The notes beneath the pieces were generated by a model that saw only the letters and a program-made list of their open reading frames with translations, was not told the DNA's origin and searched no databases. The translations under genes and the position numbers were made by a program. DNA of 64,000 bases from Alphaproteobacteria bacterium (GTDB taxonomy: Bacteria; Pseudomonadota; Alphaproteobacteria; MPNO01; UBA830): the NCBI GenBank assembly GCA_965243135.1, contig OZ251539.1, positions 416,001 to 480,000 of the forward strand. Reading direction: 5' to 3'. This document shows positions 1,202 through 62,460 of the stretch, piece by piece; position 1 is the first letter of the stretch, and every line of letters starts with the position of its first letter.

Positions 1202-1612
1202 GGGGCGGTAGCGAACGAGGTTCGAATCGCGGATCACGCAGGCGCGTTGACCGCGGCAATTCCTTCCCCCTATCAACTCCGAAGCGGCAGCTTTCCGCAG
1301 CCACGTCAGCGAGCAGGGTGAAAACTGGTGTAGGCCAACTTGCATGGCCCGTTGAATAAAACGAATCGGCACCGAGAGTTAAGCATGGGCACATGACAGT
1401 TTTTCATTTGTCCCGAGATCGCTTGCCGCGATCTCGCTTCGCGGGTGTTGAGTCTATCGTTGCAGGCGATGGAGGCGGATTTATTCGAAATGTTCGCCGA
1501 GCAGCCACGCCTCGGCAATCATTCTGGTGCGCGCCAGGCACAGCTGGAAATTGTCGAAAATCGAAAAACTGCTCGACAAGATTCGTACCGCGCTGGTCTA
1601 GGGCCGCCGGAG

Positions 1613-3160
1613 GGGTGTGAATCTCATATTGCCAAAGTCAAGTTTTCCATTGTCAGGCTGCGATGGCCTCCTGATCGTCGTTCGCGATGCTTGCTCCGAC
1701 CATTGCTTGCCATGCCGAATCGGTCTGACTTTATCAATGCCCTGAAGGTGAGGACGTTCTGACCGCATGCTCCAACGCGCCCGTTTCATGCGCTGGTTGA
1801 CCAGCACCTTGTTGGCGGCTTCGACAACACCCGACCCGATCGTGTAACCCATGGCATTCAGGGCCGCGTAACGCATGCGGCGCCTGTGCTTCTGGAAAAA
1901 CCTGAGTTCGCGTTCGAGATCCTTGAGTGCCGTCGCAGTCGTCGCCTTGTCGCGAAGATGGCGGATCGCCCGAATGACCTACCGTTGGCATCGTCGCGCA
2001 GGATGGCACGGTACTTGTCGTACCAATCGGTTGCGACGGTCGGCGACGTCGCTGAGATGTTCGCATGCATGGAAGAAACGCCCGCTCGTCGGGCTGAAGC
2101 CTCTCAAGAAACGTCCAGTTGTCGGCTGCGGCGTCGGCGACGAGTTGAAGATCGGGTCTCACTTTCCGGATGTGGGCGACCTCTTCCGCGATCTGCGCTT
2201 TCAGCGTTACCTTGCCGGCTTCCGGCATAAAAATACAATGTTTCCAAGCGATTGCCGTCCGCGTCATGGAAACTGACCGTCCCGCAAGACGCTTCGCGCC
2301 AGCATGCTTCTTCGCGCCCGTTGGGGCGAAGCGCAACCCCATCGAGCGAGACAGCGAAAGAAACCGCCTCCGTCGGCACCGGTTTCGCCTTCCGGATTTC
2401 GTCCATGGCCGCCTCGCCTTTCTCCTTCCAGAGATCGCCCGCCGTAACCAAAAGACGTTGCAGATGGCTCGTCGACGGGTTCATGCCCCCCAGTTTTTCG
2501 AAGAGTTTGACCGCGTCTCTCGGCGTACAGTGGTCCATGGAGAGCGCGGTAAGCGGCTGGAACCGTGAGATAACCGTCGACCAGCCCCAGGCTTTCATCG
2601 ACCGGCGGACGAACTTCCCGAATGCAACCGCGAGCGGGAGAACGTGACAGGACCGAACAATGTGTGGATGGTCTTTTGCGTCGGTGCAGCCCGGTAGAAA
2701 ACCTGACCCTCCCGGCGAACCGGGCCTTCCTCCACGTCCCGCGCTTCAATGTAATCGCCTACGGCCGCCCGGCAGATCGCGTAGGTATGCTGGAACAACT
2801 CGGTTTCGAAACCGGCGAACGCCTCGGAACCCTGATCTTGTCGTTCCACCCACTCGAAGGCTGCGGCTGACTGGAATGCCTCGGCAGTCGCCGCGGGGAG
2901 CTTCGAGAAGGACAAACCGGCCGAAGGCTGTAATGCTGGCATGGGAATGATGTTGTGGTGCCAACATTTTACCGCATCTTGCGGCTTGGAGCATTCCTTT
3001 TTTCGCCCCCCCCCCCCCCCCCGCCATCGTGACAAAATCCGCGCCCGGTTGTCACGAAATCGCTGATTTTGGCCTTGAAGCGCTATCGCGCAAACTTTGT
3101 TAATCCTTAAAAATCAACACCTTATAGATTTTTCAATTTGGCAATATCAGATTTGCACCC
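1613..3160 (-). mobile_element. ISKra4-like (UPF0236-type) IS, copy 1, frameshifted transposase
   Basis: Ends GGGTGTGAATCTCATATTGCCAAA and TTTGGCAATATCAGATTTGCACCC; 8-bp direct repeat cgccggag (1605-1612, 3161-3168); motifs HACEHL and IGSGVVEAANKVLVNQRMKR. Confidence 0.9.
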
Positions 3161-3263
3161 CGCCGGAGGCTCGTGATTTCGCGGTTGAGCCAGCGGCCCA
3201 AGGTCAGCAAACGCAAAGCGGCCGGCGCAAGGAACGCGTCGCCGACATGGAAATCCACTGCTA

Positions 3264-4482
3264 GTGCTTTATCAGAATATTATATTAGGATAAACTGATT
3301 TCAACTTGCAACGGGCGTCGTCGATTTTCATCTGCCAGTCCACGCCCCGCTGCCGCTCGTTGACGTCGACAGCCCACGCCGAGATTTCGGCCTGGAGGGT
3401 CTCGAGGTCGCCGAGCCGACGATGGCGCAGGCACTGCCGGGTCATGGAGCTGAGTTCGTTCTCCGCGATGTTCAGCCAACTCCCATGCTTCGGCGTGTAG
3501 CAGAACTCGATTCGCTTGACCAACTTCCGTGCCCGCTCGGGTTCGAACGCCTCGTAGAAAGCTCCTGGCGTATGGGTGTTGAGGTTGTCGCACACGAGGG
3601 TGACCTTCTCGCAGTCCGCGTAGCGGCCCTCCAGCAGGTCGGCGACTTCCTCGGCCCAGTCCACTTTCGTCCTGCGCTTGCGCGCTGTCGCCCGTCGCCA
3701 GGAGGACAGGGCCTCGCAGAACATGAAGATCGACGCGGTGCCCGCCCGTTCGTACTCGTAGTCGACGCGTCGCGGATGATCTTTGGTGGCGGGAATCGGC
3801 ACGCGCGTTTCCTTGATGAGCTGCACGGGTTGCTCGTCCATGCAGACCACCGGACGCTCGAGATCGTAAGGTTTTTCATATGTTTCAAGCACTTGTTCCA
3901 TGTGCGCGGCAAACTCCGCATCGCCGTCGGGCGGAATCACCCAGTGCTGGACTTTCCTTTTGCAGGAGAAGCCGTTTTTTTTAGCGTCTGTCGCACCGTT
4001 TCATAGCTTATGGAGTCCACGATCCCCAATTCCACCACCTTCCCGGCCAGCAACCGCAACGACCAGTTGGCGTACCCTTTCGGGGGATCCCCCTGACGCA
4101 AGGCAATGACCTTGGCCTCCGCCTCGCCGTCGAGAATCTTCGGTCTCGGCGGCGTCTCCCGCCGCTTCCGCTCCAGCGCCCGCCCCTCCCTCGACAAAAT
4201 TCTGGCGGATGTTCTCCACCGTCTTCGTCCGACACGAGAACGCCTCCGCGATCTTCCGGTCGGTCCACGCCGGCCCGTCGGCGTCGGTCTTCAACAGAAT
4301 CTGGGCGCGGCGAACCCTCTCGCTGCTCCCCTTCAGCCTGCGGATCGTTTCGTGGCAGGTCTCCCGTTCCTCGGCCGTCAGCCGGACGATGTACTTCTTG
4401 TGCATGAAAGCACGTAGCCTACGTTAGCTACTCGATAGCAAATACTGTATAAAAAATCTAATTTTTTATTTGGATAAAGCAC
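3264..4482 (-). mobile_element. IS630-family element
   Basis: IRs GTGCTTTATC and GATAAAGCAC flanked by TA in CTAG context; ORF B 3272..3940 has DE, DNLNTH and SWLNIAE; A8 slippery site near 3975-3982; ORF A has an extra frameshift near 4185. Confidence 0.9.
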
Positions 4483-5065
4483 TAGACTGTCCTGTTGCCG
4501 CCGCCGTGGGACCGCACCGAATTCCCGTCCGTTCACGTGAGCGAGCCGGAACCGCCTGAAGGTGCCAAACCGGTGGATCCTGATCACCACAGTCGCCATT
4601 TCCTCCGTGGATGACGCGTTGCAGGTCATAGCCTGGTACGCTTGGCGGATTGAAGATTGGCATCGTGCGTTGAAATCCAAGTGTGAAATCGAGGAGACAG
4701 GCCCCGCAGCCTGCCTCGAACGAGTGACCAACGCCGTCATCGCATGGCGCATCATGTTGATGATCCTGTTGGCCCGCAAGACACCGACAGCTCCTGACGA
4801 ACTCCTGTTTTTGGACTTGGAATCGCTCGTCATCTACGCAACGAAACTGCTGTCGGCGAGAAGGCACGGGAAAGGTTCCGCTGCAGGCGTTGCGACAGAA
4901 AAGCGCTAGCACGAGCGTTAATTGCGATGCGCTGGTGCGGGTCGACCGCGCAAGCTCGATGCTGCCCTACAACGCGGCGACTATGACCTCGAAGATTCCG
5001 CTTTCGCGATTGACGCCATGACATTGCGCGGGGCCGCCGATGACGAAGACACCAGATCCATGTCA

Positions 5066-5400
5066 TCAGCGTCGTCGGCCACTAAACGTCCTTCGCGCAT
5101 GTTCGGGAAAGGTCGGAAAGCCGCCGACCGGAGCGCCAACTGGCCCGCCCGGAGGCCGCTGCACGCGCCAGCTGCGTCTCTTCATCTCCGTGCAGAAGGG
5201 GCGATATGACCGCCCCGACCCGTTCGGCCGCAGCCTCCACGCCCTGTCCGCGACATGCGCATATCGAAGCGTCATCTGGACATTCTGGTGGTCGGCCAGG
5301 CGTGCCACCACCGGCAGCGGAATGCCTTGCACCACCGCATGGCTGGCAAAAGTATGCAGCAGATCGTGCAGACGGACATTCGAGTTGACGGGGGACTACT
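5066..5400 (-). pseudogene. Tyrosine recombinase C-terminal fragment
   Basis: GIPLPVVARLADHQNVQMTLRYAHV resembles the integrase box II H...Y region. Confidence 0.55.
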
Positions 5401-5548
5401 TGACAATGGCAACATCCCCTGCCAGACTTACCCTCCTTGTGATCGTGGTGGATCGAGAAGTTCCTTAGCCTTGATGACGGTCTGGAGTGGAAATGCCGCT
5501 CGCTGCTGCCCTAGACACCTTGACACTGAGTGAACATGGAGGCATGAC

Positions 5549-5893
5549 ATGTCTGAACAACCAAAGAAAAAACGCGGTTTGTGGTGGAAACTCCCAGCAA
5601 TCGGGGTAATCGTAATTGTAGCAGTTAGCATGCTCTCCGACAATGGTACCATTGAAACTTGTGATGATTTGGCTCCTCGTATCATTGACCTAAGTAAAGA
5701 ACAAAAAAATCCCTTCTCGCCATCGATACTAAAGATTTATGATATTACTGAGCAGGAAAAAACCGGAAATCAGATATTAAACTGCCATGGAAATGCTAAA
5801 CTAAGCCGGGGAGATCTAGATCCAAATGTGAATTTTTATCTGCAACAGGATGATGATGGTGATCGGTTTTTTGGCTACAATATCGAACGTTAA
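5549..5893 (+). CDS. Hypothetical protein with N-terminal membrane anchor
   Basis: GGAGG RBS upstream; basic N-terminus then hydrophobic helix; two Cys; AT-richer than flanks. Confidence 0.75.
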   Translation: MSEQPKKKRGLWWKLPAIGVIVIVAVSMLSDNGTIETCDDLAPRIIDLSKEQKNPFSPSILKIYDITEQEKTGNQILNCHGNAKLSRGDLDPNVNFYLQQDDDGDRFFGYNIER

Positions 5894-6044
5894 TAGAGGA
5901 TCTACTGAGGACATTGTTAAATGTTATGTTGCTGTCGATTCCTAATTTAACTCATGAATTAAACCTGAAGTGTAACAACCTATTCGTTAAGGTCAGTACG
6001 GTTGAAATTCTCAATAAATTTGTCGCGGAATGTGGTATCGAGAT

Positions 6045-13915: not shown

Positions 13916-14682
13916 CCGCTCCCGGTTCCGTCCTGATCCGCGGACTCGCGGGAGAGGGGCGGGAGGTGGAGTTTTCTCCCGACGAGATCGCGGACAGTCG
14001 GGGGAACGTCCAGCTGGACCACGGCTACGCACGAACGATCTCTTCGGCCTGGGGAGAGGCGGTCGACCGGGTGTTCCTGTTCGCCGACGACAAGCTGGAG
14101 GCCTCGATGATCCGGCGCACGGAAGCGCTTCGGCGGGACGGACTCGACATCTACGTCGATCGCGAGCCGTTGCGCGCGGGAGACGCGGCGAACTATCTCG
14201 CCGAACGCTGGCGGCGTCCGCCGCCGCCGGACGGCCCCGTCGAAATTCCCGCGAACGGCGGCGGTCCGGCGGAGGGCAACGCGGCGCGGTTCCCGGAGCG
14301 CCCCGAAGAACGCGGCGCCCGCGAGCGGCCGACGGATCCGGACGGCCGGGGCGCGGCGGACTGGCTGGCGGCGAACGGAAGCGTTTGGGAAAGGGACATG
14401 GCCCGCGTCATCCGCCGCGCCGCGTCGGAGTTGCGCGAGCGCGTCGGCGGGGATGTTTCGGAGAACCGGCAAGAGCCGCGGGAACGGACGGCCGCCGAGG
14501 GCGGCCGCGCGACGTCCGGGACGGGAGGAGACGCGGCGCTGCAGACGGCGCCGCATCCGCGGAAACTTTCGGCGGCTCTCGCCGGACGGGCCGAAGAGAT
14601 CTGCCGGGCTTCCGGGCGGGAAGCGGACCGGGAACTACTGGCAGGCGGGCTCGGTCGCGGGAGAACGGGGCGCTCGCTCTCG
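13916..14682 (+). pseudogene. Internal duplicate of the relaxase gene (about 19617-20381)
   Basis: APGSVLIRGLAGEGREVEFSPDEIAD...LAGRAEEICR is almost identical to the full relaxase. Confidence 0.9.
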
Positions 14683-14709
14683 GTGCGACGCGGGGTGAAG
14701 CCACCGGTG

Positions 14710-15621
14710 TCAGGTGCCCGCAAACGCCCGCTCGAGTGCGGCGACGTCGAGTTTCGTCATCGGCAGCATGGCCTCGAAGACGCGCTCCCGCGCCGCGTCG
14801 GCGGCGTCGGTTCCGAGCCAGTCCAGCCACTGTTTCGGCACCACCTGCCAACTGATGCCGAAACGGTCCTTCAGCCAGCCGCATTGCCCCGGTTCGCCGC
14901 GCCGCGAGAGTTCGTTCCAATGATGGTCCACGTCCGGCTGGCCGTCGCAGAGCACTTGCAGCGACACGGCCTCGTTGAAGCCGAAGGCGTGGTCGCCCGG
15001 GCTGTCCATCGCCGCGAAATGCTGCCCGGCGAGAACGAAGCGGCCGATCTTGACCATCCCTGCTCCGTCTTCGTCCGGCCCGATTCGCTCCACTTCCCCG
15101 ATTCGGGAATCGTGGAAGACGCCGCAGAAGTGCTCCATCGCGGCCATGGCGTTGCCGAGTTGCCCGCCGCAGAACATCAGGCACGGCACGATGGGCGGCA
15201 AGCCGGGATCCGGGGAAACCGTCACCTGCCAGGAGACGCCGAAGCGATCCGCCGTCCAGCCGAAGCAGGGACTCCAGGGGTAGGCGTCGAGCGGCATCAG
15301 CACCGCGCCGTCGCTCGACAGCTTGGCGAACAGGCGCTCGGCCGTCGCGGAACCGACGTGGGCGAAGAACGAGATGCTGGGATTGATGACGAACTGCGGC
15401 CCGCCGTTGACCGCCGTGAAGCGCCGGCCGCAGATCTCGAAGTCCACGCTCATCACGCTGCCGCGCGGCTTGCCGGCCGGATTGTCGGACGAGCGCGGAT
15501 AACGCGAGCGGGCGATCACGCGGCCCGCTTCAGGCGTCTCGACGTAGAACGCCGCCGCTTCCTCGGCCTTGTCGTCGAACCACAGACAGGGCGCGACGGT
15601 CGGGTTGTTCAGGGTGTTCAT
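14710..15621 (-). CDS. VOC/PhnB-like protein (3-demethylubiquinone-9 3-methyltransferase-like family), two domains
   Basis: PCLWFDDKAEEAAAFY, NGGPQF...SISFF, WTADRFGVSWQ and QCGWLKDRFGISWQVVP. Confidence 0.9.
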   Translation of the reverse strand: MNTLNNPTVAPCLWFDDKAEEAAAFYVETPEAGRVIARSRYPRSSDNPAGKPRGSVMSVDFEICGRRFTAVNGGPQFVINPSISFFAHVGSATAERLFAKLSSDGAVLMPLDAYPWSPCFGWTADRFGVSWQVTVSPDPGLPPIVPCLMFCGGQLGNAMAAMEHFCGVFHDSRIGEVERIGPDEDGAGMVKIGRFVLAGQHFAAMDSPGDHAFGFNEAVSLQVLCDGQPDVDHHWNELSRRGEPGQCGWLKDRFGISWQVVPKQWLDWLGTDAADAARERVFEAMLPMTKLDVAALERAFAGT

Positions 15622-30789: not shown

Positions 30790-33249
30790 TGAGAGGTGAT
30801 ACCCGTGTATGAGTGACGCGGAGACCAACTCCCTGAGAACGCTGCTGACGGTGCTGGCACGCATTTGCGCTGCGTTCCGGATCTGCCGCTGAGAAAGCGG
30901 GCTGTCGGCAAGCAGGCTGCGTTGGCGAGGCGACGTGTCGGGCGCTTCGGAGGCGGCCTCGACGATCTGCAGCGACAGGACCGGCGTCTCGCGCAGAGCG
31001 ATCTCGTCAGGGCTTGCGGAAGCCCGATGCTCGACAGTCAGCAAACGCTTCTTGCGTCGTAGGTTGGAGTCGCCCCAAGCGTGCAGTTCGGAAGAGCCGC
31101 GCAACGCCTGTCCGCCTCGCGCATGGGCGCTCTTGCGGGCATGGTGGACGAGGACGATGGCGGCGTCGAAGTTGCGTTGCAGGTCGCGGAGACAGGCAAG
31201 CAACGGCGCGACTTCGCCGGCGGCATTCTCGGCGGTGGAGGCGAACCAAGGGGCCCAGCAGGCGTGGCCGGACGCGGCGAACCGTCAGGCGCTGCCTGTC
31301 GTCGGCCAGGTCGAGGCGCACGGCGGGAACGTCGATCACGTCGATATCGAGGTTGTCGAGGTCAGTGCCGGCGGCTCTCGCGATACCGTCAAGGCGCTCG
31401 CGAACGACATGGCCGGCATCTTCGGCGGCGAACAGCAGAACGCGGCCGGAAGGGGTGTGAATCTCATATTGCCAAAGTCAAGTTTTCCATTGTCAGGCTG
31501 CGATGGCCTCCTGATCGTCGTTCGCGATGCTTGCTCCGACCATTGCTTGCCATGCCGAATCGGTCTGACTTTATCAATGCCCTGAAGGTGAGGACGTTCT
31601 GACCGCATGCTCCAACGCGCCCGTTTCATGCGCTGGTTGACCAGCACCTTGTTGGCGGCTTCGACAACACCCGACCCGATCGTGTAACCCATGGCATTCA
31701 GGGCCGCGTAACGCATGCGGCGCCTGTGCTTCTGGAAAAACCTGAGTTCGCGTTCGAGATCCTTGAGTGCCGTCGCAGTCGTCGCCTTGTCGCGAAGATG
31801 GCGGATCGCCCGAATGACCTTGTCGATACCGTTGGCATCGTCGCGCAGGATGGCACGGTACTTGTCGTACCAATCGGTTGCGACGGTCGGCGACGTCGCT
31901 GAGATGTTCGCATGCATGGAAGAAATCGATCGCCCGCTCGTCGGGCTGAAGCCTCTCAAGAAACGTCCAGTTGTCGGCTGCGGCGTCGGCGACAGCGACG
32001 AGTTGAAGATCGGGTCTCACTTTCCGGATGTGGGCGACCTCTTCCGCGATCTGCGCTTTCAGCGTTACCTTGCCGGCTTCCGGCATAAAAATACAATGTT
32101 TCCAAGCGATTGCCGTCCGCGTCATGGAAACTGACCGTCCCGCAAGACGCTTCGCGCCAGCATGCTTCTTCGCGCCCGTTGGGGCGAAGCGCAACCCCAT
32201 CGAGCGAGACAGCGAAAGAAACCGCCTCCGTCGGCACCGGTTTCGCCTTCCGGATTTCGTCCATGGCCGCCTCGCCTTTCTCCTTCCAGAGATCGCCCGC
32301 CGTAACCAAAAGACGTTGCAGATGGCTCGTCGACGGGTTCATGCCCCCCAGTTTTTCGAAGAGTTTGACCGCGTCTCTCGGCGTACAGTGGTCCATGATC
32401 AGGAGAGCGCGGTAAGCGGCTGGAACCGTGAGATAACCGTCGACCAGCCCCAGGCTTTCATCGACCGGCGAGATGGACGAACTTCCCGAATGCAACCGCG
32501 AGCGGGAGAACGTGACAGGACCGAACAATGTGTGGATGGTCTTTTGCGTCGGTGCAGCCCGGTAGAAAACCTGACCCTCCCGGCGAACCGGGCCTTCCTC
32601 CACGTCCCGCGCTTCAATGTAATCGCCTACGGCCGCCCGGCAGATCGCGTAGGTATGCTGGAACAACTCGGTTTCGAAACCGGCGAACGCCTCGGAACCC
32701 TGATCTTGTCGTTCCACCCACTCCTGGATGAAGGCTGCGGCTGACTGGAATGCCTCGGCAGTCGCCGCGGGGAGCTTCGAGAAATCGATGGACAAACCGG
32801 CCGAAGGCTGTAATGCTGGCATGGGAATGCTCCTGATGTTGTGGTTTGATGCCAACATTTTACCGCATCTTGCGGCTTGGAGCATTCCTTTTTTCGCGCC
32901 CCCCCCCCCCGCCATCGTGACAAAATCCGCGCCCGGTTGTCACGAAATCGCTGATTTTGGCCTTGAAGCGCTATCGCGCAAACTTTGTTAATCCTTAAAA
33001 ATCAACACCTTATAGATTTTTCAATTTGGCAATATCAGATTTGCACCCGCCGGAAGCGGCGGGGAAGCGCCGCAGACAGGGCGTGCCGGTCGCGACGGCG
33101 ACTGCGAGGTCGAGAGCGAGGAAAGATTTGCCGCATTTCGGCTCTCCGATGCCGACCGCCTGTTCGCTCCACAGCTGTTCGACGAGCCAGCGCCGCTCCT
33201 GCGGTTGTTCGGCGAGCTCCGCGGGCCGACGGGTGGGGAAAGCATTCAT
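30790..33249 (-). pseudogene. AAA_25/RepA-like ATPase-helicase, interrupted by IS copy 2
   Basis: RWLVEQLW...GEPKCGKSFLALDLA before the IS; VLLFAAED, IVLVHHARK and LRGSSELHAWGDS after it. Confidence 0.85.
31453..33048 (-). mobile_element. ISKra4-like IS, copy 2 (least decayed)
   Basis: Same IRs as copy 1; 8-bp direct repeat gccggaag (31445-31452, 33049-33056); 1596 bp. Confidence 0.92.
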
Positions 33250-38959: not shown

Positions 38960-39330
38960 GCGAGGCGACCCCGATCTCGCCACCATATTGGCATTCCCGG
39001 ACGGTCGCAGCTCGCCAGCGGGCGTCAGGAAGCGCGCGGCGGTCCCTCTGATCGCGCATCCCGTTGGCGTAAAGCTTGATCTTCCAGAAATCTGTCCGGG
39101 TCGCCAGCGTAGTCTCGCGTACCGGTCCGTGGGATGGCGGTGCAAGAAACAGCCATGAACGAAGCCGACCGCACGATGGAAAACCGGGCGTGCCGGAAGC
39201 CGCCTGTCATGAAGACGGTACCGAAATCCGCGTGCGTGCGGCTTTTGGCGCAGGATCATCTCGGGACGGGTGTCCTTGCCGCGAACGGCCGCGCATGATG
39301 GCCGCCGTTCGCGGCAAGGACACCCGTGTC
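38960..39330 (-). pseudogene. vsr: Vsr (very short patch repair) endonuclease remnant
   Basis: AAVRGKDTRPEMILRQKPHARGFRYRLHDRRLP...FVHGCFLHRH...DFWKIKL. Confidence 0.8.
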
Positions 39331-42029: not shown

Positions 42030-42420
42030 GGCAATGGCGAAGTGCTCAGACGTTCGCCGTGCGCCGCCTGACGCGCGCGATGGGACATCGTTATCGGATT
42101 CACCGAAGAGACCTGCCCGGCAACCCCGGATCTGGTCTTTCCCGCCCGGAGGAAAGCGATCTTCGTCCACGGTTGCTTCTGGCACCGGCAATCCTGCCTG
42201 CGCGAACGGCGTCCGAAATCGAGGCGGGACTACTGGCCTCTGAAACTCAAGCGCAACAAGGGGAGGGATGCCGATAACGCGGCCCGCCTCCTGGAGATGG
42301 GCTGGAAAGCCGTCGCGTTCTGGGAATGCGAAATCGCGGGTCTCGACTCGGTTCGGGTGCGGACGCGGCGGGCAAAGGAAGGCTGAAGGCGACTGTGGGG
42401 ACGACGCGTAGCAGGGTGGC
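42030..42420 (+). pseudogene. vsr: Vsr endonuclease, frameshifted
   Basis: VRRLTRAMGHRYRIHRRDLPG / DLVFPARRKAIFVHGCFWH...YWPLKLKRNKGRD...GWKAVAFWECE. Confidence 0.85.
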
Positions 42421-42631
42421 GGCCGAGCAAGCGCGAGCCGCGGCTGTCTCGGCGGGGGACGGTCAGATTTTTCGACTCGACAGATGGGCTGCGCTCGTCC
42501 GCGCCGTTGACGAATTCCGAAGACGCCGGTGCGTGACATGGCTCGTAAATACGGCATTTTGTAGGCGAAAAAAATTCCGATCGACATCTGGCGAGTGATT
42601 CGGTTATTGTAGTTGACGGTAGGGAGAAGAG

Positions 42632-43879
42632 TTGAAGCGGATAACGACCTTGGCGCGACCCATCGGAATTGACCTGTTCGCTGGCGCGGGAGGCCTTAGC
42701 CTCGGTTTCGAGGCCGCCGGCTTCGATGTAGCTGCAGCAGTCGAAATAGATCCCCTTCATTGCGCGACGCACGAGTTCAATTTCCCATACTGCCGGACGA
42801 TATGCGCAAGCGCGCTCGACGTCAGCGGCGTCGAAATCAGGAGGATGGCGGGGATCGAGGGCGAAGAGATCGCGGTCGTCTTCGGCGGCACTCCTTGTCA
42901 GGGATTTTCCATGATCGGCAAGCGGTCGCTCGACGACCCGCGCAACGAGCTCACCCATAGGTTCCTTGACCTCGTTCTCGATCTGCGTCCGGCCTATTTC
43001 GTCTTCGAAAACGTAAGCGGCTTGACCGTGGGCAGACAGCGCCGGATCCTGGACGATATGATCTCCGTTTTCGATTTGAACGGCTATCATGTGCTGTCGC
43101 CGCATCGTCTCCTGAATGCGTCGGACTATTGTGTTCCGCAGAACAGGCGTCGTCTCTTCCTGATGGGCGCAAAAGAAGAGTTGCCCTTGCCGAAGTATCC
43201 CGAATCGTGCGGTAAGCTGGTCACCGTTGCGGCGGCGCTCGACGACCTGCCCGATCCCTACGAATATCCCAAGTTGAAGGCATGCGACTGGACAAGGGCG
43301 GAATTCGGCGAACCGTCCGAGTACGCACGCGAACTACGTGGCGATGCAGTGGGCTTCGGCTACAGGAGGATATTCGACGAATCCCTTCTCACTTCTAGCC
43401 TGCGCACGACACATGCAGCGAAGACGCGGCGGCGATTCGCGAAGACGCCTATCGGGAAGACCGAACCCGTCAGCCGGTTCCGTAAATTGGATCCGGCCGG
43501 TCTCTGCAACACCATCCGTGCGGGAACGGGCAGCGACAGGGGCGCGTTCACTTCGCCGCGGCCGATCCATCCGCGCGCGCCGCGCTGCATCACGAACAGA
43601 GAAGCGGCGCGCCTTCATTCCTATCCCGACTGGTTTCGCTTCCATGTTACCAAATGGCACGGTTTTCGCCAGATCGGCAATTCGGTGCCCCCGCTGCTGG
43701 CTCGGGCAGTGGCGTCGGAGATTATGTCGGCGCTCGGGATCTCCCCGGTCGTGCCCGAGAAGCCGCTCGAACTCGGTGACCCGGCTCTGTTGTCGCTTAC
43801 CGCAACTCAAGCCGCTCTACGCTACGGGATTCCCGTCAACTCCGTTCCCAAACGCTGTCGGGGGCGCGACATCGGTTGA
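42632..43879 (+). CDS. C5 cytosine DNA methyltransferase
   Basis: DLFAGAGG, GGTPCQGFS, FENV, PQNRRR and QIGNSVPP; intact frame. Confidence 0.95.
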   Translation: MKRITTLARPIGIDLFAGAGGLSLGFEAAGFDVAAAVEIDPLHCATHEFNFPYCRTICASALDVSGVEIRRMAGIEGEEIAVVFGGTPCQGFSMIGKRSLDDPRNELTHRFLDLVLDLRPAYFVFENVSGLTVGRQRRILDDMISVFDLNGYHVLSPHRLLNASDYCVPQNRRRLFLMGAKEELPLPKYPESCGKLVTVAAALDDLPDPYEYPKLKACDWTRAEFGEPSEYARELRGDAVGFGYRRIFDESLLTSSLRTTHAAKTRRRFAKTPIGKTEPVSRFRKLDPAGLCNTIRAGTGSDRGAFTSPRPIHPRAPRCITNREAARLHSYPDWFRFHVTKWHGFRQIGNSVPPLLARAVASEIMSALGISPVVPEKPLELGDPALLSLTATQAALRYGIPVNSVPKRCRGRDIG

Positions 43880-45520: not shown

Positions 45521-47674
45521 GCGGCAGCCCCCGCCGCTACTGCGGGCACGACTTCTCCGAAGACGAGATCGACCCGCTCCCTGATCGCGGGTGGCCTCCA
45601 CCGCCGGGCGCTGTCCCGGGAGGTCTGCCGACGCCTCGACTGGCGCAACGGCGGCCCAAAGGATTATGAGCGCGCGCGTCGCCATGTTGTGCATGCACGG
45701 CGTGATCGTCCTACCGCCGCCAAGGCGTGCGCCGGTCGTCCGCTCGTGCCCGGTCCCGCGACCGACAGGCCCTTGGTCCCGACCCCCGAGCGTCTCGCCG
45801 ATGTCCAACCCGTCGCCGTGGAGCCTGTCCGGAATGCGGGCGAAGGCCGCCTCTGGAACGAGTTCGTCGCTCGCTATCAGCATCTCGGCTACTCGCCGCT
45901 GCCCGGTGTGCAGATGCGCTACTTCGTCCGGGCTGCCGACAGCGAACCCTTCGCCGTTCTCGGCTTCGGCGCCACGGCCTGGAAGATCGCGCCGCGGGAC
46001 AAGCTCGTGGAACTCCGAGATCCGCCGCCGCAATCTGCCGCTAGTGGTCAACAATGCCAAGGCCCTGCCTTGGGTGCAGATCTATTTTTGCCAAACTCCT
46101 TGTTTTTATTTACGGAATCGGGATTTCCGCCGTCAGGCGACGTTGAACGCCTGATTGTCGTTCGCAGCCCCAGTCATTGTCCGCCATGCCGACTCGAAGC
46201 GACCTGACCTTATCAACGCTCTGAGGGTGAGGACGTTCTGACCGCCTTCGACGCTCCAGCGCATGCCGGCCCGTTTCATGCGCTGGTTGACCAGCACCTT
46301 GTTGGCGGCTTCCACGACGCCCGACCGCGTAGCCGCTGGCTTTGAGGCTCGCGTAGCGCATGCGGCGCCTGTGCTTGCGGAAAAACTTGAGCTCGCGTCC
46401 GAGAACCTTGAGCGCCGTTTCCGTCGTCGCTTTGTCGCGGAGATAGCGGATCGCCGACCTTGTCGACGCCGTCGGCGTCGTCGCGCAGGACGGCGCGGTA
46501 CTTTTCGTACCAGTTGCTTGCGACGGTCGGAGACCTCGTTGAGATGTTCGCACGCAAAAATCGACCGCCCGCTCGTCGGGCCGGAGCTTGTCGAGAAACG
46601 TCCAGTTGTCGGGCGCAGCGTCGGCAACGGCGACCACCTTCAGGTCGGGCCGCACTTTGGTGGGCGACCTCTTCGGCGAGTTGCGCCTTCAGCGTCGCCT
46701 TGCCGGCCTCCGGCCCGAAACTGAGCGTTTTCAAGCGATTGCCTTCCGCGTCCTGGAAACTGACCGTCCCGCAGGACGCCTCGCGCCAGCACGCTTCCTC
46801 GTCTCCGTCCGGGCGAAGCGAAACCCCGTCAAGCGAAACGGCGCAGGAAACCGCCTCGCACCGTTTCCGCCTCGCGGATGCTTTCCATGGCTTCCTGCTC
46901 CTTTTCCTTCCAGAGGCTGCCCGTCGTCTCCAACAGACGCTTCAGGTGACTCGACGACGGGTTCATGCCCCCCAACTCCCCGAAGAGTTGGGCCGTTTCC
47001 TGCGGCGTGCAGTGCTCCAGAAGCAGGAGAGCGCGATAAGCGGCCGGGTTCAGCCGTCAGCCCAGGTCGTTGTCGACCGGCGAGAACGACTCCTTTTCCG
47101 AGCGCGTCCGAAAATACCGGACCGGACCGAACAGCGTGTGGACGGTCTTCTGCGTCCGCGCAGCCCGGTAGAAGACCTTGTCGTCCTTGCGAATCTGGCC
47201 TCCCCTCTCGTCCCGGTCCTCGTTGCAAATCACCGTCCGGCACAGCGCAGCGATCTGCTTACTCAACCCAAGCTCGAAATCGGCGAACGCCTCGGGACCC
47301 TCCCCCTCCGACCTTTCCTTGAGGAAGGCTCCCCGAACGCCTTGGCGGTCGCGGCCCCTTTCTCGACGATGGACGCGAAAGCTCGCACCGCCTCTGCGGC
47401 CACCGGGGAGAGGCTGGAAAGGGACAAACCGTTCGAAGATTGCGAAACTGACATGGGAATGCTCCTGATGTTGTGGGGTCAAGCCAACATTCTGCCGCAT
47501 TTAGCGGTCAGGAGCATTCCTTTTTTTCGTCCTCCGACCCCCTGATCGTGTCAAAATCCGCGCCCGGAACGGCGTTTTGTCACGAAATCGCCGATTTCGT
47601 CCTTGAAGCGTCGCAGCTCGTACTCGAATAATTGTTGAAAATCAACAGGTTGTGGATTTTTCCTTTTGGCAATA

Positions 47675-52619: not shown

Positions 52620-53694
52620 ATGCATGACGGGCTGCCGGACAAGGCTGGAGATCGACGAGGGCCTCGCGCCGTGAAAGGCCGGACGGCCATCAGCCTGTTC
52701 GCCGGAGCGGGCGGCATGGACATCGGCGTCGACCAGGCCGGCTTCAAGACCGTTTGCGCCGCCGATCCGCACTGCGCCGCGCCGCTGCGGCGCAATGCAA
52801 AGCGGAAGACCGTCTGGCAGGTGGATGTCCGGGCGCTGGATCCCGCGAGGATCCTGGACGCGGTCGGGCTGGAACGGGGACAGTTGAGCCTGCTCCACGG
52901 GGGTCCGCCGTGCCAGCCCTTCAGCCAGATCGGCAAGCAGGCCGGCCTTCGCGACCCTCGCGGAGGGCTGGTCTTCGAAATGGCGAGGTTCGCGGAAGCC
53001 CTTCGTCCGACCGCCGTCCTGATCGAGCAGGTGCCGAACTTCCTGCGGGCCCGGACTCTGGACGGCTCCCCCCTGCTGGACGCTCTTCAGGCGGAGTTTC
53101 GCAGACTGGGATACGACATGCGCGCCGACCTGCTCGAGGCCAGCGAGCACGGCGTCGCGCAGCGTCGGCGGCGGGCGGTCATGGCGTTCGTGCCTGCGGG
53201 CCAGCGGTTCGAGTTTCCCATTCTGCGATCCGGGCTTCAGGTCACGGTCGGCGAAGCGCTGCGGGGTCTCCCGGAACCGTCCGCTCCGGGCGGAGAGCCG
53301 CCGTTTCCGAACCACGTAGACGTGACCCCGCAGCGCGAACGCATCGCCTACGTGCCCGAAGGGCTGTGGCTCTCGAAGGCGCCCGGCGTGCCTCCGGACA
53401 TTCTCAGGAACCTGACCCGCAAGGACACCACGAAGTACAGAAGGCTGGACAGATCCATGCTGGCGCCGACGCTTCGATGCGGCGAAGCGCTCTATCATCC
53501 CACGGCTGACCGCTACATCACTCCTCGCGAAGCCGCGCGCCTTCAGGGCTTTCCTGACGGCCACGTTTTCGTGGGACCCATTCGCCGGCGAACCGGCGTC
53601 GTTCGCGACCTCGACCAGCATCGGCAGGTGGCGAACGCGGTGCCGCCGCCGATGGCCCGTCGCTTCGGATCTGAGAGAGGGCCTGTGCCTGTAG
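52620..53694 (+). pseudogene. C5 cytosine methyltransferase with small deletions
   Basis: SLFAGAGG, GGPPCQPFS, IEQV, AQRRRR and QVANAVPP; motif II shortened (CAADPH); likely native stop TAG at 53692-53694 is now out of frame. Confidence 0.85.
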
Positions 53695-56169
53695 TCAGGG
53701 AACTGTTCGGTCAGGTTCTCGACGGAAACATGGATTCGAGCGCTTGCCGCAGCGCACGGTGTCCGTTCTTGGGCGAAATCTGCGACGGCGGGGGAAACCG
53801 CGATATGGCTCGCGTAGCTGCGTCGGATCCGGGACTGGGCCCCTTTTTCGACTACGAGGTCGGCCGCAGGACGCAGGGCCATCTTCCGTGCGGCATCTGC
53901 TCGGTCGAAACCCCGAAGAAAAAAGAGACATGGGCGATTTGCTCCAGGCGACTGTTCGCCTTTTCCTCGAACGGCGTCGCGGACCGACATCGCGAGCTGG
54001 CCGACCGGGTGTTCGCGCTCTGCGGTTTTCTCCCCGGACAGGAAGTATCCGTGTGGTCTGAAATATCCCTCAAGGAGGAGGGGGAGAAAGGCGTGTTCGA
54101 CTATCGCCTCGACTATGTGCTGCGGGCCGCGGAACCCGGATCCGTTCCCGTCGTCGTCGAGACTTGCTCGACGTCTGGAGGGAACAGGGAAAAGGGGACC
54201 GATATCCAGAGCGCCTTTCGCAGGGCGGTTCTGTTCGCGCATTCGGCCGCCGGGGGTCAGGTCAGGGCGCCCGGGGTCAATGTGCGGCAGGTCTGGGCGA
54301 GAATGGCGTCGCAACTGGTCGCGAAAGCGGCGAACAGCTGGGGCGGGCGCGCAATCGTTCAGGATCTTCTGGCGGGTGTGGATCTCATATGGCTAAAATT
54401 GCATAAAGTGCAACATTATCAAGCTGCAAGGACTGTTATTTCCTGATTGTCATTTGCGGCAGGAACTCCGACCATAGCTTGCCATGCTAAACGGCCGGAT
54501 CTTATCAATGCTCTGAAAGTGAGGACGTTCTGACCTCATACTCCAACGCATGCCGGCCCGCTTCATGCGCTGGTTGACCAGAACCTTGTTGGCAGCCTCG
54601 ACAACGCCTGACCGCGTAGCCTTTAGCGTTCAAGCTTGCGTAGCGCGCGCTTGTGCTTCCGGAAAAACTTGAGCTCGCGTTCGAGATCCTTGAGCGCCGC
54701 CGTTGTCGTCGCCTTGTCGCGAAGATGGCGGATCGCCGACCTTGTCGATGCCGTTGGCGTCGTCACGCAGGACAGCGCGGTACTTGTCGTACCAGTCGGT
54801 CGCGACGGTCGGCAACGTCGCTGAGATGTTCGCACGCATGAAAGAAATCAACCACCTGCTCGTCGGGTCGAAGTTTCTCGAGAAACGTCCAGTTGTCGGC
54901 TGCGGCAACGGCAACGAAGGTCGGGCCGCACTTTCGTGCTCGACTTCTTCGGTGATCTGCGCCTTCAGCGTCGTCTTGCCAGCTTCCGGCCGAAATACAG
55001 TGTTTCCAAGCGATCGCCGTCCGCGTCATGGAAACTTACCGCAGGACGCTTCGCGCCAGCACGCTTCTTCGTGCTCGTCGGGACGAAGCGCAACCCCGTC
55101 GAGCGAGACAGCGAAGGAAACCGCACGGCACCGGTTTCGCCTCGCGGATTTCGTCCAAGGCCGCTTCGCCCTTCTCCTTCCAGAGATCGCCCGCCGTCAC
55201 CAGAAGACGTCGCAGGTGGCTCGACGACGGGTTCATGCCCCCCAGCTTTCCGAAGAGTTTGGCCGCGTCTCTCGGCGTGCAGTGGTCCATGATCAGGAGG
55301 GCGCGGTAAGCGGCGGGAACCGTGAGGTAACCGTCGACCAGACCCAGGCTTTCGTCGACGGGCATGAGTTTCGGGTGCGGTACCGAGAACGGCAATACGT
55401 GACCGGACCGAACAACGTGGTTTTTGGCGTCGGCGCAGCCCGGTAGAAGACCTGACCCTCCCGGTGAATCGGACCTTCTTCGTCGTCCCGCGCTTCAATC
55501 GCCTACGGCCGCACGACAGATCGTGAAGGCATGCTCCCTCAGCCTCGAAACCGGCGAACGCCTCGGAACCCTGTTCCTGTCGTTCGATTCCTTTGCAGAT
55601 GAAGGCTGCGGCTGACCGAAGTGCCTCGGCAGTCGTCGCGGGGAGGTCCGAGAAGGACAAACCGGTCGAAGGCTGTGATGCTGACATGGGAATGATGTTG
55701 TGTATTGCTGCCAACATTCTGCCGCATCTTGCGGCTCGGAGCATTCCTTTTTTTGCTCTCCAGCTCCCCTATCGCGACAAAATCCGCCCCTGGAACGACG
55801 TTTTGTCACGAAATCGCTGATTTCGGCCTCGAAGCGCCGCGACACGGACTCGGATAATCATTGAAAATCAACGTCCTATGTAATCTTCGATTTAGCCATA
55901 TCAGATTTGCACCCCTTCTGGCCGACTACACCCATACGGCCCTGCCGCTTGACGATCTGCGCTCGCCGGACTGGACGCCCGGCGAAGTGAACATGGTCGT
56001 TTCCGACCTGAGCGGGCCGGTCGCCCTGTACTCCGGGCCCATAAGGGCGGCGGGCGGAGACAGGAAATGCTGGTTCGAGTTGCTGGGCGCCCCTCACGTT
56101 CCGACGCTGGAATCCATAACGAGGAAGCTGGACGAGATTCCTTCTGTCGCCACGTTTCGGGTGCACTGA
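53685..56169 (+). pseudogene. NotI-like restriction endonuclease, interrupted by an IS
   Basis: VRELFG, CPFLGEICDGGGNR, CGICSV, WAICSRRL, DYVL, STSGGN and NVRQVWARMASQL; resumes LLADY...FRVH after 55914. Confidence 0.75.
54374..55914 (-). mobile_element. Divergent ISKra4-like IS, frameshifted
   Basis: GGGTGTGGATCTCATATGGCTAAA...TTTAGCCATATCAGATTTGCACCC; 8-bp direct repeat cttctggc (54366-54373, 55915-55922). Confidence 0.9.
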
Positions 56170-60797: not shown

Positions 60798-62460
60798 CCG
60801 GCATGACCCGCTTCAACCTGCAAATTCCGGTTCAGTTGCTGGAACGCATCCGGGCGGCGGCGAAGGGGTGCAAATCTGATATTGCCAAATTGAAAAATCT
60901 ATAAGGTGTTGATTTTTAAGGATTAACAAAGTTTGCGCGATAGCGCTTCAAGGCCAAAATCAGCGATTTCGTGACAACCGGGCGCGGATTTTGTCACGAT
61001 GGCGGGGGGGGGGGGGGGCGAAAAAAGGAATGCTCCAAGCCGCAAGATGCGGTAAAATGTTGGCACCACAACATCATTCCCATGCCAGCATTACAGCCTT
61101 CGGCCGGTTTGTCCTTCTCGAAGCTCCCCGCGGCGACTGCCGAGGCATTCCAGTCAGCCGCAGCCTTCGAGTGGGTGGAACGACAAGATCAGGGTTCCGA
61201 GGCGTTCGCCGGTTTCGAAACCGAGTTGTTCCAGCATACCTACGCGATCTGCCGGGCGGCCGTAGGCGATTACATTGAAGCGCGGGACGTGGAGGAAGGC
61301 CCGGTTCGCCGGGAGGGTCAGGTTTTCTACCGGGCTGCACCGACGCAAAAGACCATCCACACATTGTTCGGTCCTGTCACGTTCTCCCGCTCGCGGTTGC
61401 ATTCGGGAAGTTCGTCCGCCGGTCGATGAAAGCCTGGGGCTGGTCGACGGTTATCTCACGGTTCCAGCCGCTTACCGCGCTCTCCATGGACCACTGTACG
61501 CCGAGAGACGCGGTCAAACTCTTCGAAAAACTGGGGGGCATGAACCCGTCGACGAGCCATCTGCAACGTCTTTTGGTTACGGCGGGCGATCTCTGGAAGG
61601 AGAAAGGCGAGGCGGCCATGGACGAAATCCGGAAGGCGAAACCGGTGCCGACGGAGGCGGTTTCTTTCGCTGTCTCGCTCGATGGGGTTGCGCTTCGCCC
61701 CAACGGGCGCGAAGAAGCATGCTGGCGCGAAGCGTCTTGCGGGACGGTCAGTTTCCATGACGCGGACGGCAATCGCTTGGAAACATTGTATTTTTATGCC
61801 GGAAGCCGGCAAGGTAACGCTGAAAGCGCAGATCGCGGAAGAGGTCGCCCACATCCGGAAAGTGAGACCCGATCTTCAACTCGTCGCCGACGCCGCAGCC
61901 GACAACTGGACGTTTCTTGAGAGGCTTCAGCCCGACGAGCGGGCGTTTCTTCCATGCATGCGAACATCTCAGCGACGTCGCCGACCGTCGCAACCGATTG
62001 GTACGACAAGTACCGTGCCATCCTGCGCGACGATGCCAACGGTAGGTCATTCGGGCGATCCGCCATCTTCGCGACAAGGCGACGACTGCGACGGCACTCA
62101 AGGATCTCGAACGCGAACTCAGGTTTTTCCAGAAGCACAGGCGCCGCATGCGTTACGCGGCCCTGAATGCCATGGGTTACACGATCGGGTCGGGTGTTGT
62201 CGAAGCCGCCAACAAGGTGCTGGTCAACCAGCGCATGAAACGGGCGCGTTGGAGCATGCGGTCAGAACGTCCTCACCTTCAGGGCATTGATAAAGTCAGA
62301 CCGATTCGGCATGGCAAGCAATGGTCGGAGCAAGCATCGCGAACGACGATCAGGAGGCCATCGCAGCCTGACAATGGAAAACTTGACTTTGGCAATATGA
62401 GATTCACACCCCGGCGAAGGCCGAAGGCTTGAAGCCTAAAGCCCGAGCAGCAACAGGCAG
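60794..62460 (+). pseudogene. Ribbon-helix-helix (Arc/CopG-like) protein interrupted by IS copy 3
   Basis: MTRFNLQIPVQLLERIRAAAK before the IS, AEGLK after it. Confidence 0.6.
60866..62411 (+). mobile_element. ISKra4-like IS, copy 3 (inverted twin of copy 1)
   Basis: Reverse complement of copy 1 apart from poly-G length; 8-bp direct repeat cggcgaag (60858-60865, 62412-62419). Confidence 0.92.

Follow-up and report, generated by a model that had tools for sequence, protein, structure and literature searches.

Spontaneous small insertions and deletions (indels) in bacterial genomes are normally dominated by single-base changes in homopolymers, and their number falls with length. Here we describe a recurrent loss of mostly 5-7 nucleotides (nt) with one end placed at AT, most often ATC, in a 64,000-nt stretch of an alphaproteobacterial genome (G000:C1:416001-480000, below referred to as the window) and in the genome around it. 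The losses separate the copies of a 1.6 kb insertion sequence (IS) that probably belongs to the ISKra4 family, one of which lies at positions 31454-33048 of the window. The source bacterium is sponge-associated, and its genome is a single contig of 6.10 Mb with a G+C content of 65% and an estimated completeness of 98.8%.

Several processes are known that act on DNA at breaks, mismatches or short motifs. End joining by Ku and LigD gives small homology-free deletions at breaks, of a length that is not fixed. In fungi, repeat-induced point mutation (RIP) introduces motif-biased C-to-T transitions and disables repeated mobile DNA far faster than the background. The Vsr endonuclease of very short patch (VSP) repair nicks 5' of the mismatched T in a methylase site, whereupon a few nucleotides are removed and the sequence is restored; it is not known to delete. 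The deletion signature ID-TOP1, or ID4, consists of short deletions made by sequential cleavage by topoisomerase 1 at embedded ribonucleotides (Reijns et al., Nature 2022, PMC8866115; PMC13131469); in the parts of the description used here these deletions span 2-5 bp, follow a TN*T motif, fall mostly in short repeats or microhomology, are linked to transcription and depend on a type IB topoisomerase (PMC8866115). EndoMS/NucS, according to the sections of the report drawn on here, cuts both strands at the third phosphodiester bond 5' of a mismatch, which leaves 5'-protruding ends with the mismatch in a central position (Ishino et al., NAR 2016, PMC4838380).

Results

Copies of the putative ISKra4-family element

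The genome contains six near-identical copies of the element (n = 6; A to F), all with the same terminal inverted repeats, and three of them lie in the window:

31454..33048, minus strand (transposase strand): copy 2 (A), the putative ISKra4-family IS, defined by alignment and by the flanking direct repeat GCCGGAAG
1614..3160, minus strand: copy 1 (E), with 15 short deletions, defined by alignment, with its own target duplication CGCCGGAGG
60866..62410, plus strand: copy 3 (F), inverted, with all 15 deletions of copy 1; 1419 nt are 100% complementary to copy 1

Direct repeats of 8-9 bp, differing between copies, flank the elements as target-site duplications next to the terminal inverted repeats; because copy 1 has a target duplication of its own, it is a separate insertion. 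The two transposase halves of the fullest copy match the NCBIfam profile NF033572 with 51 bits (profile positions 4-216) and 116 bits (242-421) and jointly span it, each of them falling below the 205-bit cut-off because the transposase gene is split by a frameshift. The fullest IS sequence gives one transposase reading with a single frameshift; all six copies have one further frameshift in common, and none is intact.

The alignment of the six copies, from which an element of 1637 nt was reconstructed, contains no substitutions at all and 15 indel events of 5-9 nt, in addition to a poly-C run of variable length. By number of deletions the copies form a nested series: one in B and C, two in D, six in copy 2 and 15 in copies 1 and 3. 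Since copies 1 and 3 carry the same 15 deletions between different flanking duplications, an already deleted element must still have transposed. The poly-C run, located 5' of the transposase start (window 32888-32900), varies from about 12 to 18 C across the copies and is the sole other difference among them. Copies 1 and 3, identical and inverted, enclose about 58 kb in the manner of the arms of a composite transposon. A search of a plasmid database with the IS gave no match, and in a DNA search across the bacterial family only one of 25 other genomes, that of a sister species in the same genus (G002), had relatives of it.

Deletions separating copies 1 and 3 from copy 2

Alignment of the three window copies with MAFFT shows copies 1 and 3 as identical and as differing from copy 2 by nine deletions and the poly-C length, with no substitutions. 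The deletion sizes (7, 5, 6, 5, 5, 6, 6, 6 and 5 nt) and the GAT and ATC anchors reported in a sequence-only reading of the window, which preceded this analysis, were reproduced by the alignment and the coordinates: of the nine segments, six have GAT as their last three bases, one allows a placement as ATCAG, another (CTCCTG) lies directly next to AT, and the remaining one is a slip in a repeat. In window positions, with no strand assigned, they are:

31820..31826: TTGTCGA or TGTCGAT, 7 nt, lost in copies 1 and 3; ATCGACA on the coding strand, an in-frame Ile codon
31926..31930: TCGAT, 5 nt, lost in copies 1 and 3; ATCGA on the coding strand, with unique placement and no microhomology
31989..31994: GCGACA, 6 nt, inside a GCGAC repeat; an ordinary slippage-type event
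32397..32401: GATCA or ATCAG, 5 nt, lost in copies 1 and 3 and in genomic copy D, by alignment
32470..32474: GAGAT, 5 nt; ATCTC on the coding strand
32724..32729: CTGGAT, 6 nt, present in copy 2 alone and gone in the five others; ATCCAG (Ile-Gln) on the coding strand
32784..32789: ATCGAT (Ile-Asp), 6 nt, lost in copies 1 and 3, by alignment
32830..32851: CTCCTG (6 nt) and TTTGA or TTGAT (5 nt), two losses 5' of the start codon, by alignment; the former takes out the AGGAG ribosome-binding site

Copy 2 is not intact either, a correction to the sequence-only reading: it shares one frameshift with the other copies and itself lacks six segments that are kept in copies B, C and D, namely CGAAT, CTTCG, ATGCCG, TGCAT, CGCGAT and AACGGCGAT, with junctions after 31555, 31606, 31618, 31884, 32494 and 32936. 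These six losses are common to copies 1 and 3; relative to copy 2, the junctions in copy 1 fall after 1979, 2078, 2136, 2538, 2606, 2855, 2909 and 2949. Two events clash with any single tree of the copies. The absence of CTGGAT everywhere but in copy 2 conflicts with the six deletions common to copies 1, 2 and 3, and copy D shares the GATCA loss with copies 1 and 3 yet has none of those six, so that the loss at 32397..32401 is either a recurrent hit or the result of gene conversion. ATC or GAT occurs at 64 of about 3274 strand-positions of the reconstructed element; for nine or more of 15 events to be anchored there by chance, the binomial P is 8e-10, or 4e-7 if the chance per event is doubled for placement ambiguity.

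Deletion signature in the whole genome

Comparison of the genome with itself yielded 8385 non-redundant repeat alignments, in which, whatever the divergence class, the lengths of gaps between paralogous repeats show a further peak at 5-6 nt. Among alignments with less than 0.2% mismatch, gaps of 1, 2, 3 and 4 nt were counted 54, 23, 4 and 1 times, and gaps of 5, 6, 7 and 9 nt 84, 48, 10 and 9 times, respectively. The set of events numbered 414 before the last merging step, and after removal of duplicates comprised 355 distinct events of 4-9 nt with clean flanks; the anchor was studied in 188 unambiguously placed events of 5-7 nt.

In 119 of these 188 events AT constitutes the first two deleted bases on one strand, and in 68 of the 188 ATC/GAT is found at that end, compared with 211 of 11699 flank positions (1.8%; P = 4e-68). 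The placement is exact, with 124 side-counts of AT at offset 0 and 4-13 at the neighbouring offsets. This tabulation of paralog gaps bears out the sequence-only reading in that the process is motif-directed and non-random; of the AT(C/G) anchor that it proposed, AT at the first two deleted bases stands, while ATG, like ATT and TTC, is found far behind ATC. The events do not have the direct repeat at their boundaries that slippage or microhomology-mediated deletion needs: 201 of 414 are unable to slide, 115 slide by 1 nt and only 22 by 5 nt or more.

The polarity of the events was established by a test of reading phase based on G+C content at third codon positions (GC3). The longer allele keeps the phase in 40 of the 48 scorable 5 nt events, and the events are therefore deletions rather than insertions. 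A majority rule tried for the same purpose was uninformative (62 versus 39), because deleted copies multiply, and was replaced by the phase test.

Strands were taken from NCBIfam-confirmed transposases, as six-frame assignment by codon usage could not separate sense from antisense and was dropped. Deletions starting at ATC showed no bias with respect to the transcribed strand or to the orientation of the element (51 coding versus 38 non-coding, against a background of 221:209), and no replichore bias was found among 100 private events (30/29 and 21/20); in the absence of both, the process looks to act on duplex DNA. The cumulative GC skew itself has its minimum near 5.16 Mb and its maximum near 1.65 Mb, which makes the replichores unequal (about 2.6 and 3.5 Mb) and may reflect a recent rearrangement or the insertion of a large element.

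About 3.5% of ATC contexts are hit. No extended recognition motif was found around the hit sites, and a GATC (Dam-type) site is not enriched, G preceding ATC in 34% of hits and in 44% of unhit ATC sites. A codon-aware process was also considered, as 5 nt deletions started at codon position 1 in a first pass; after removal of duplicates the bias was modest (30/11/12). It is treated as compositional because in-frame ATC is the commonest ATC in GC-rich DNA, and 17 of the 34 coding-strand ATC sites of the element are in-frame ATC codons.

DNA affected by the deletions

Gaps of 5-7 nt are present in the ISKra4, IS66, ISAs1 and IS4 families and in a relaxase pseudogene, so the signature belongs to the host and is not tied to one IS family. 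The erosion of unselected DNA proposed earlier is evident here, since losses of 5 nt that shift the reading frame are found in dead IS copies from four families and in the relaxase pseudogene. For every mismatch there are 9.8 gaps of 5-7 nt in the ISKra4 family of the present element and 1.35 in one IS4 family, both young; the ratio drops to 0.03-0.16 for the majority of older IS families and to 0.005-0.018 for large non-IS duplications, which are a weak control, as they belong to a related pair of integrated elements that may have diverged in other hosts. We read the falling ratio as saturation, with the susceptible sites exhausted fast and substitutions still accumulating. The window itself lies inside one of two related large integrated regions that resemble plasmids or integrative and conjugative elements; many segments of the 345-512 kb region recur at 5.39-5.56 Mb with 93-98.6% identity (comparison region G000:C1:5.39-5.58 Mb), among them a block of 28.9 kb (483198-512109 versus 5533877-5562740).

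Further sequences in the window that bear on the recurrence of the losses are:

46124..47674, minus strand: ISKra4-like relative, diverged to about 73% identity; among its own losses of 5-7 nt, several fall at columns lost in other lineages
54374..55914, minus strand: ISKra4-like relative, diverged to about 79% identity, whose losses of 5-7 nt in several cases share their position, and not always their length, with those of other lineages
14300..14800, no strand assigned: relaxase duplicate, which keeps 6 nt (14555-14560) missing from the full copy near 20250

In an alignment of 16 ISKra4-like copies the same columns are lost in separate lineages, and some of these losses share the ATC end and differ in length, e.g. 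ATCCA versus ATCCAC. Were every ATC a target, this degree of overlap would be expected, as an element has about 64 ATC sites and a lineage 10-15 hits. The same alignment confirmed that both relatives lack 5 nt at two ATC codons singled out before, i.e. ATCCG (in H-I-R-K) and GATCG (in Y-T-I-G-S). The 6 nt loss noticed in the full relaxase was found as well; its placement can shift along a repeat of 4 nt (CCGC). Conversely, CGTAT is kept by the full copy and missing from the duplicate.

Independent data on the reality of the deletions

The stretch has been found in sponge-metagenome runs and in runs of two organisms, from four studies. Logan contigs, i.e. assembled contigs and not raw reads, of runs from three studies were compared with positions 1250-6000 of the window; parts without contig cover in runs X1 or X9 were excluded as evidence. 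The undeleted segments are present in contigs of X6 and X9 (both of study P3) and of X10 (study P4). Deleted junctions are found in X6 (e.g. at 1979 and 2078), where their depth is about that of unique sequence, and in X10 too. A contig of X1 (study P1) joins 1603 to 3160 and represents the empty site for copy 1. Thus, other public runs, including one from another study, carry both alleles, which is the outcome, at the level of contigs, of the check for an artefact that had been called for. Both alleles in independent contigs, taken together with the nested, copy-specific states, rule out an artefact of assembly or polishing, and make one of sequencing chemistry very unlikely.

Sister species and unique chromosomal DNA

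All genomes examined for the signature lie within one genus, and the closest are distant: a 4.5 kb query from the rRNA region matches those of the same genus with 84-94% identity. For G002 we sampled 60 regions of 20 kb (L068-L087, L102-L141). This genome is extremely repeat-rich, 1.2 Mb of sampled DNA giving 1.5 Mb of pairwise repeat alignment. The gaps between its own repeats (4 nt 937, 5 nt 1740, 6 nt 3162, 7 nt 1209, 8 nt 195) peak at 6 nt, and among its short deletions 7 nt is as common as 5 nt, from which it follows that the length preference differs between the species. The ISKra4 loci of G002 alone provide 20 clean events, too few to judge the anchor. In another genome, G004, remnants of IS66 have an excess of 5-9 nt gaps that is a hint only, as these gaps are GC-rich, few and counted pairwise.

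A comparison of G002 with the host genome over 343 kb of unique alignment revealed an excess of 6 nt losses in the latter: clean gaps missing in the host genome numbered 10 of 3 nt, 1 of 5 nt, 23 of 6 nt and 2 of 7 nt, and those missing in G002 numbered 7, 1, 4 and 1, respectively. The near-monotonic spectrum of raw gaps missing in G002 (618, 294, 185, 54, 12, 18 and 5 for 1-7 nt), in which there is only a small bump at 6 nt, serves as the internal control. These data suggest that working genes are also hit, with only in-frame losses surviving.

Candidate genes

Neither Ku (PF02735) nor the LigD polymerase domain (TIGR02778) has a match in the 98.8% complete genome, with a Bacillus subtilis control positive for both, so that the end-joining repair invoked in the sequence-only reading is not supported; a type IB topoisomerase (PF01028) likewise gave no match in the genome, with a positive control in Deinococcus radiodurans. 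MutS and MutL are present and uninterrupted, and RNase HII is intact. The best match to NucS_C is weak and partial (33.8 bits, profile 2-71 of 124) and lies in an open frame of 424 aa at G000:C1:2513338-2513547, whose product, judged by its sequence, would not be a typical NucS. The genome contains 20 matches to C5-methyltransferases, in at least 12 separate genes, and eight matches to Vsr, often as adjacent pairs, several of them in the window and some fragmentary. C5-methyltransferase and Vsr profile matches are:

39131-39307, 42111-43726, 29600-30455 and 52686-53669: matches in the window
G000:C1:5505061-5506340, 3219330-3220602 and 2956903-2958228: matches elsewhere in the genome

The window also contains, at 23294-23905, a tandem repeat with at least five copies of a 102 nt unit, whose identity decays from 100% to 61%.

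Discussion

A proposed mechanism

The deletions are the product of a real mutational process, specific to this lineage. As its most plausible agent we favor a site-preferring nuclease or transesterase that would cut twice, 5-6 bp apart, and reseal the DNA without Ku and LigD, and we assign this model a probability of about 0.4. According to it, the piece lost from duplex DNA would be sharply delimited and usually measure 5 or 6 bp, in fewer cases 7 or 9; one of its ends would be fixed exactly 5' of AT (mostly of ATC, then of TTC) and the other would lie half a helical turn away. The putative enzyme might make a staggered double-strand cut with loss of the overhangs, or two cuts on one strand, and resealing would proceed independently of Ku and LigD. 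Every AT(C) would be a potential target. In unselected DNA, such as dead ISs and pseudogenes of integrated plasmid-like elements, sites would be lost much faster than substitutions arise, until they are exhausted; in working genes frameshifting losses would be purged and some in-frame 6 bp losses would stay. Deleted IS copies, retaining their ends, could move in trans and so spread the deletions.

A number of observations weigh against this model. No enzyme was identified, and a staggered double-strand cut would call for end joining in a genome that has neither Ku nor the LigD polymerase domain. In 69 of the 188 unambiguous events neither end is AT, TTC being the commonest start among them, and comparison of 175 hit with 4836 unhit ATC sites of the same elements reveals weak extra context beyond ATC, which excludes a classical long recognition site. 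No private deletion is found in any of the six copies, copies 1 and 3 as well as B and C being identical, a state more in keeping with losses that arose in bursts as a lineage transposed than with continuous decay of resident copies. No such gaps are seen in intact IS subfamilies of young age (21 copies of 1.7 kb and 8 copies of 2.8 kb). In G002 the anchor is weak and NTC-like (ATC 12, GTC 10 and TTC 8 of 176 sides) and there is more microhomology, with only 88 of 389 events unable to slide. The chromosomal 6 nt gaps, finally, are not polarized by an outgroup, and AT is found at an end in only 3 of 26 (G002 sequence).

Other explanations

The deletions could also result from template skipping, in which a polymerase loops out a lesion or a modified base in AT(C) together with its neighbours, and the loop of 5-7 nt escapes MutS and MutL. 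The E. coli MutS/MutL system corrects loops of up to about 4 nt only, so the dip at 3-4 nt followed by the rise at 5 nt fits a blind spot of repair, which would determine where the size peak begins. Both proteins are uninterrupted here, the genome abounds in DNA-modifying genes (the 20 C5-methyltransferase and eight Vsr matches), and skipping needs no end joining, in agreement with the absence of Ku and LigD. On the other hand, an error of copying one strand should give a replichore or transcription-strand bias, neither of which is seen; the sharp drop above 6-7 nt is left unexplained, looping out without microhomology is energetically unfavourable, and modification of ATC is hypothetical. On balance we regard template skipping as a doubtful, albeit serious, contender.

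Copying errors during replicative transposition or conjugative transfer would let deletions accumulate per jump rather than per time. Such an origin agrees with six copies that have neither substitutions nor private deletions, all losses falling on internal branches, with copies 1 and 3 sharing their 15 deletions between different target duplications, and with gap/mismatch ratios of 9.8 and 1.35 in young IS families versus 0.005-0.018 in non-IS duplications, although the low ratio of the latter is a weak control for the reason given above. It is difficult to reconcile with the involvement of four IS families with different transposases and ends and of a relaxase gene, with the lack of deletions in young active subfamilies that have made many jumps, with the excess of 6 nt losses in unique chromosomal genes and with the lack of orientation bias relative to the element. 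We therefore consider it unlikely.

A more far-reaching reading holds that the sponge-associated genus possesses a DNA-excising activity that removes 5-7 bp at short WTC- or NTC-type sites, prefers transposons and integrated plasmid-like DNA, and differs in its sequence preference between species; it would be a prokaryotic counterpart of RIP in which mobile genes are inactivated through micro-deletions instead of point mutations. We regard this reading as quite unlikely.

A motif-driven artefact of sequencing, basecalling or assembly is largely refuted, and what chance it keeps is very small. The assembly is a single contig from a host-associated sample, relatives with the same hump may share similar pipelines, and the comparison runs were available as contigs rather than raw reads; but a motif error would strike all copies alike, whereas identical sequence is found in different nested states depending on the copy, and the full set of 15 deletions recurs in two copies that differ in their flanks. 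Moreover, independent contigs contain deleted junctions (X6, at about unique depth, and X10) and undeleted alleles (X6, X9 and X10), the reading frames indicate true loss from a working gene, and the gaps missing in G002, taken from the same alignments, have only a small 6 nt bump.

Ordinary slippage or microhomology-mediated deletion under relaxed selection in a decaying symbiont, which accounts for some repeat slips (GCGACA, CGAAT and the relaxase gap with its 4 nt homology) and is in line with the greater microhomology in G002 (88 of 389 events unable to slide), is refuted as the main cause here, since microhomology is absent from 201 of the 414 events and limited to 1 nt in 115, and since it predicts neither a mode at 5-6 nt nor AT exactly at the first deleted base.

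Implications

The signature is real, statistically overwhelming and, as far as the literature was searched, undescribed; word searches returned no paper on a 5-6 bp anchored deletion signature in bacteria, which does not prove its absence from print. An additional peak in indel length that lies exactly at 5-6 bp and is coupled to an anchor of 2-3 bases points to an undescribed enzyme activity on DNA. In unselected DNA deletion outpaces substitution by orders of magnitude, and one element has lost about a quarter of its ATC sites before any base substitution. If the process is general, it constitutes a new source of pseudogenes and a new force in the early decay of symbiont genomes, and AT(C) should become depleted in neutral DNA; with a preference for mobile DNA it would represent a novel type of genome defence. 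The signature can be used as a clock-like marker for ordering IS copies, and it calls for caution in annotation pipelines that treat such frameshifts as sequencing errors.

Comparison with known systems

End joining by Ku and LigD resembles the process described here in producing small homology-free deletions, but those that it produces are not of fixed length, and Ku and the LigD polymerase domain were not found in this genome. VSP repair is alike in its motif-directed nick and the removal of a few nucleotides, and the host has eight Vsr and 20 C5-methyltransferase matches. EndoMS/NucS would be a natural source of a 5 nt stagger, C being the central base of ATCNN; as far as the sections of the literature used here go, it differs in that it is triggered by a mismatch and not by a motif, leaves the 6 nt events unexplained, is described with no deletion outcome, and is known from Archaea and from Actinobacteria that lack MutS and MutL, both of which are present in the host genome.

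RIP shares with the present process a motif bias and the disabling of mobile DNA, yet here the changes are short deletions, with zero substitutions among the six copies. As to a RIP-like confinement to repeats, the gap/mismatch ratio is far higher in ISs than in the large duplications, a comparison confounded by selection and by separate histories, and the excess of 6 nt losses extends to unique chromosomal DNA, i.e. not to repeats alone.

Compared with ID-TOP1, to the extent covered by the parts of its description used here, the present deletions are longer (5-7 bp), half of them have no homology and they show no strand bias; besides, a type IB topoisomerase is absent and RNase HII is intact here. 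The two are partly alike in that a matching base is found just past the far end in 30 of 64 events of 6 nt and in 12 of 65 events of 5 nt that start at ATC. They are alike in the narrow size range and in a defined boundary base, and the enzyme of ID-TOP1 cuts twice and reseals the DNA without double-strand-break repair. By these likenesses, the eukaryotic TOP1 deletion signature is the nearest known analogue of the process that operates in this bacterium.

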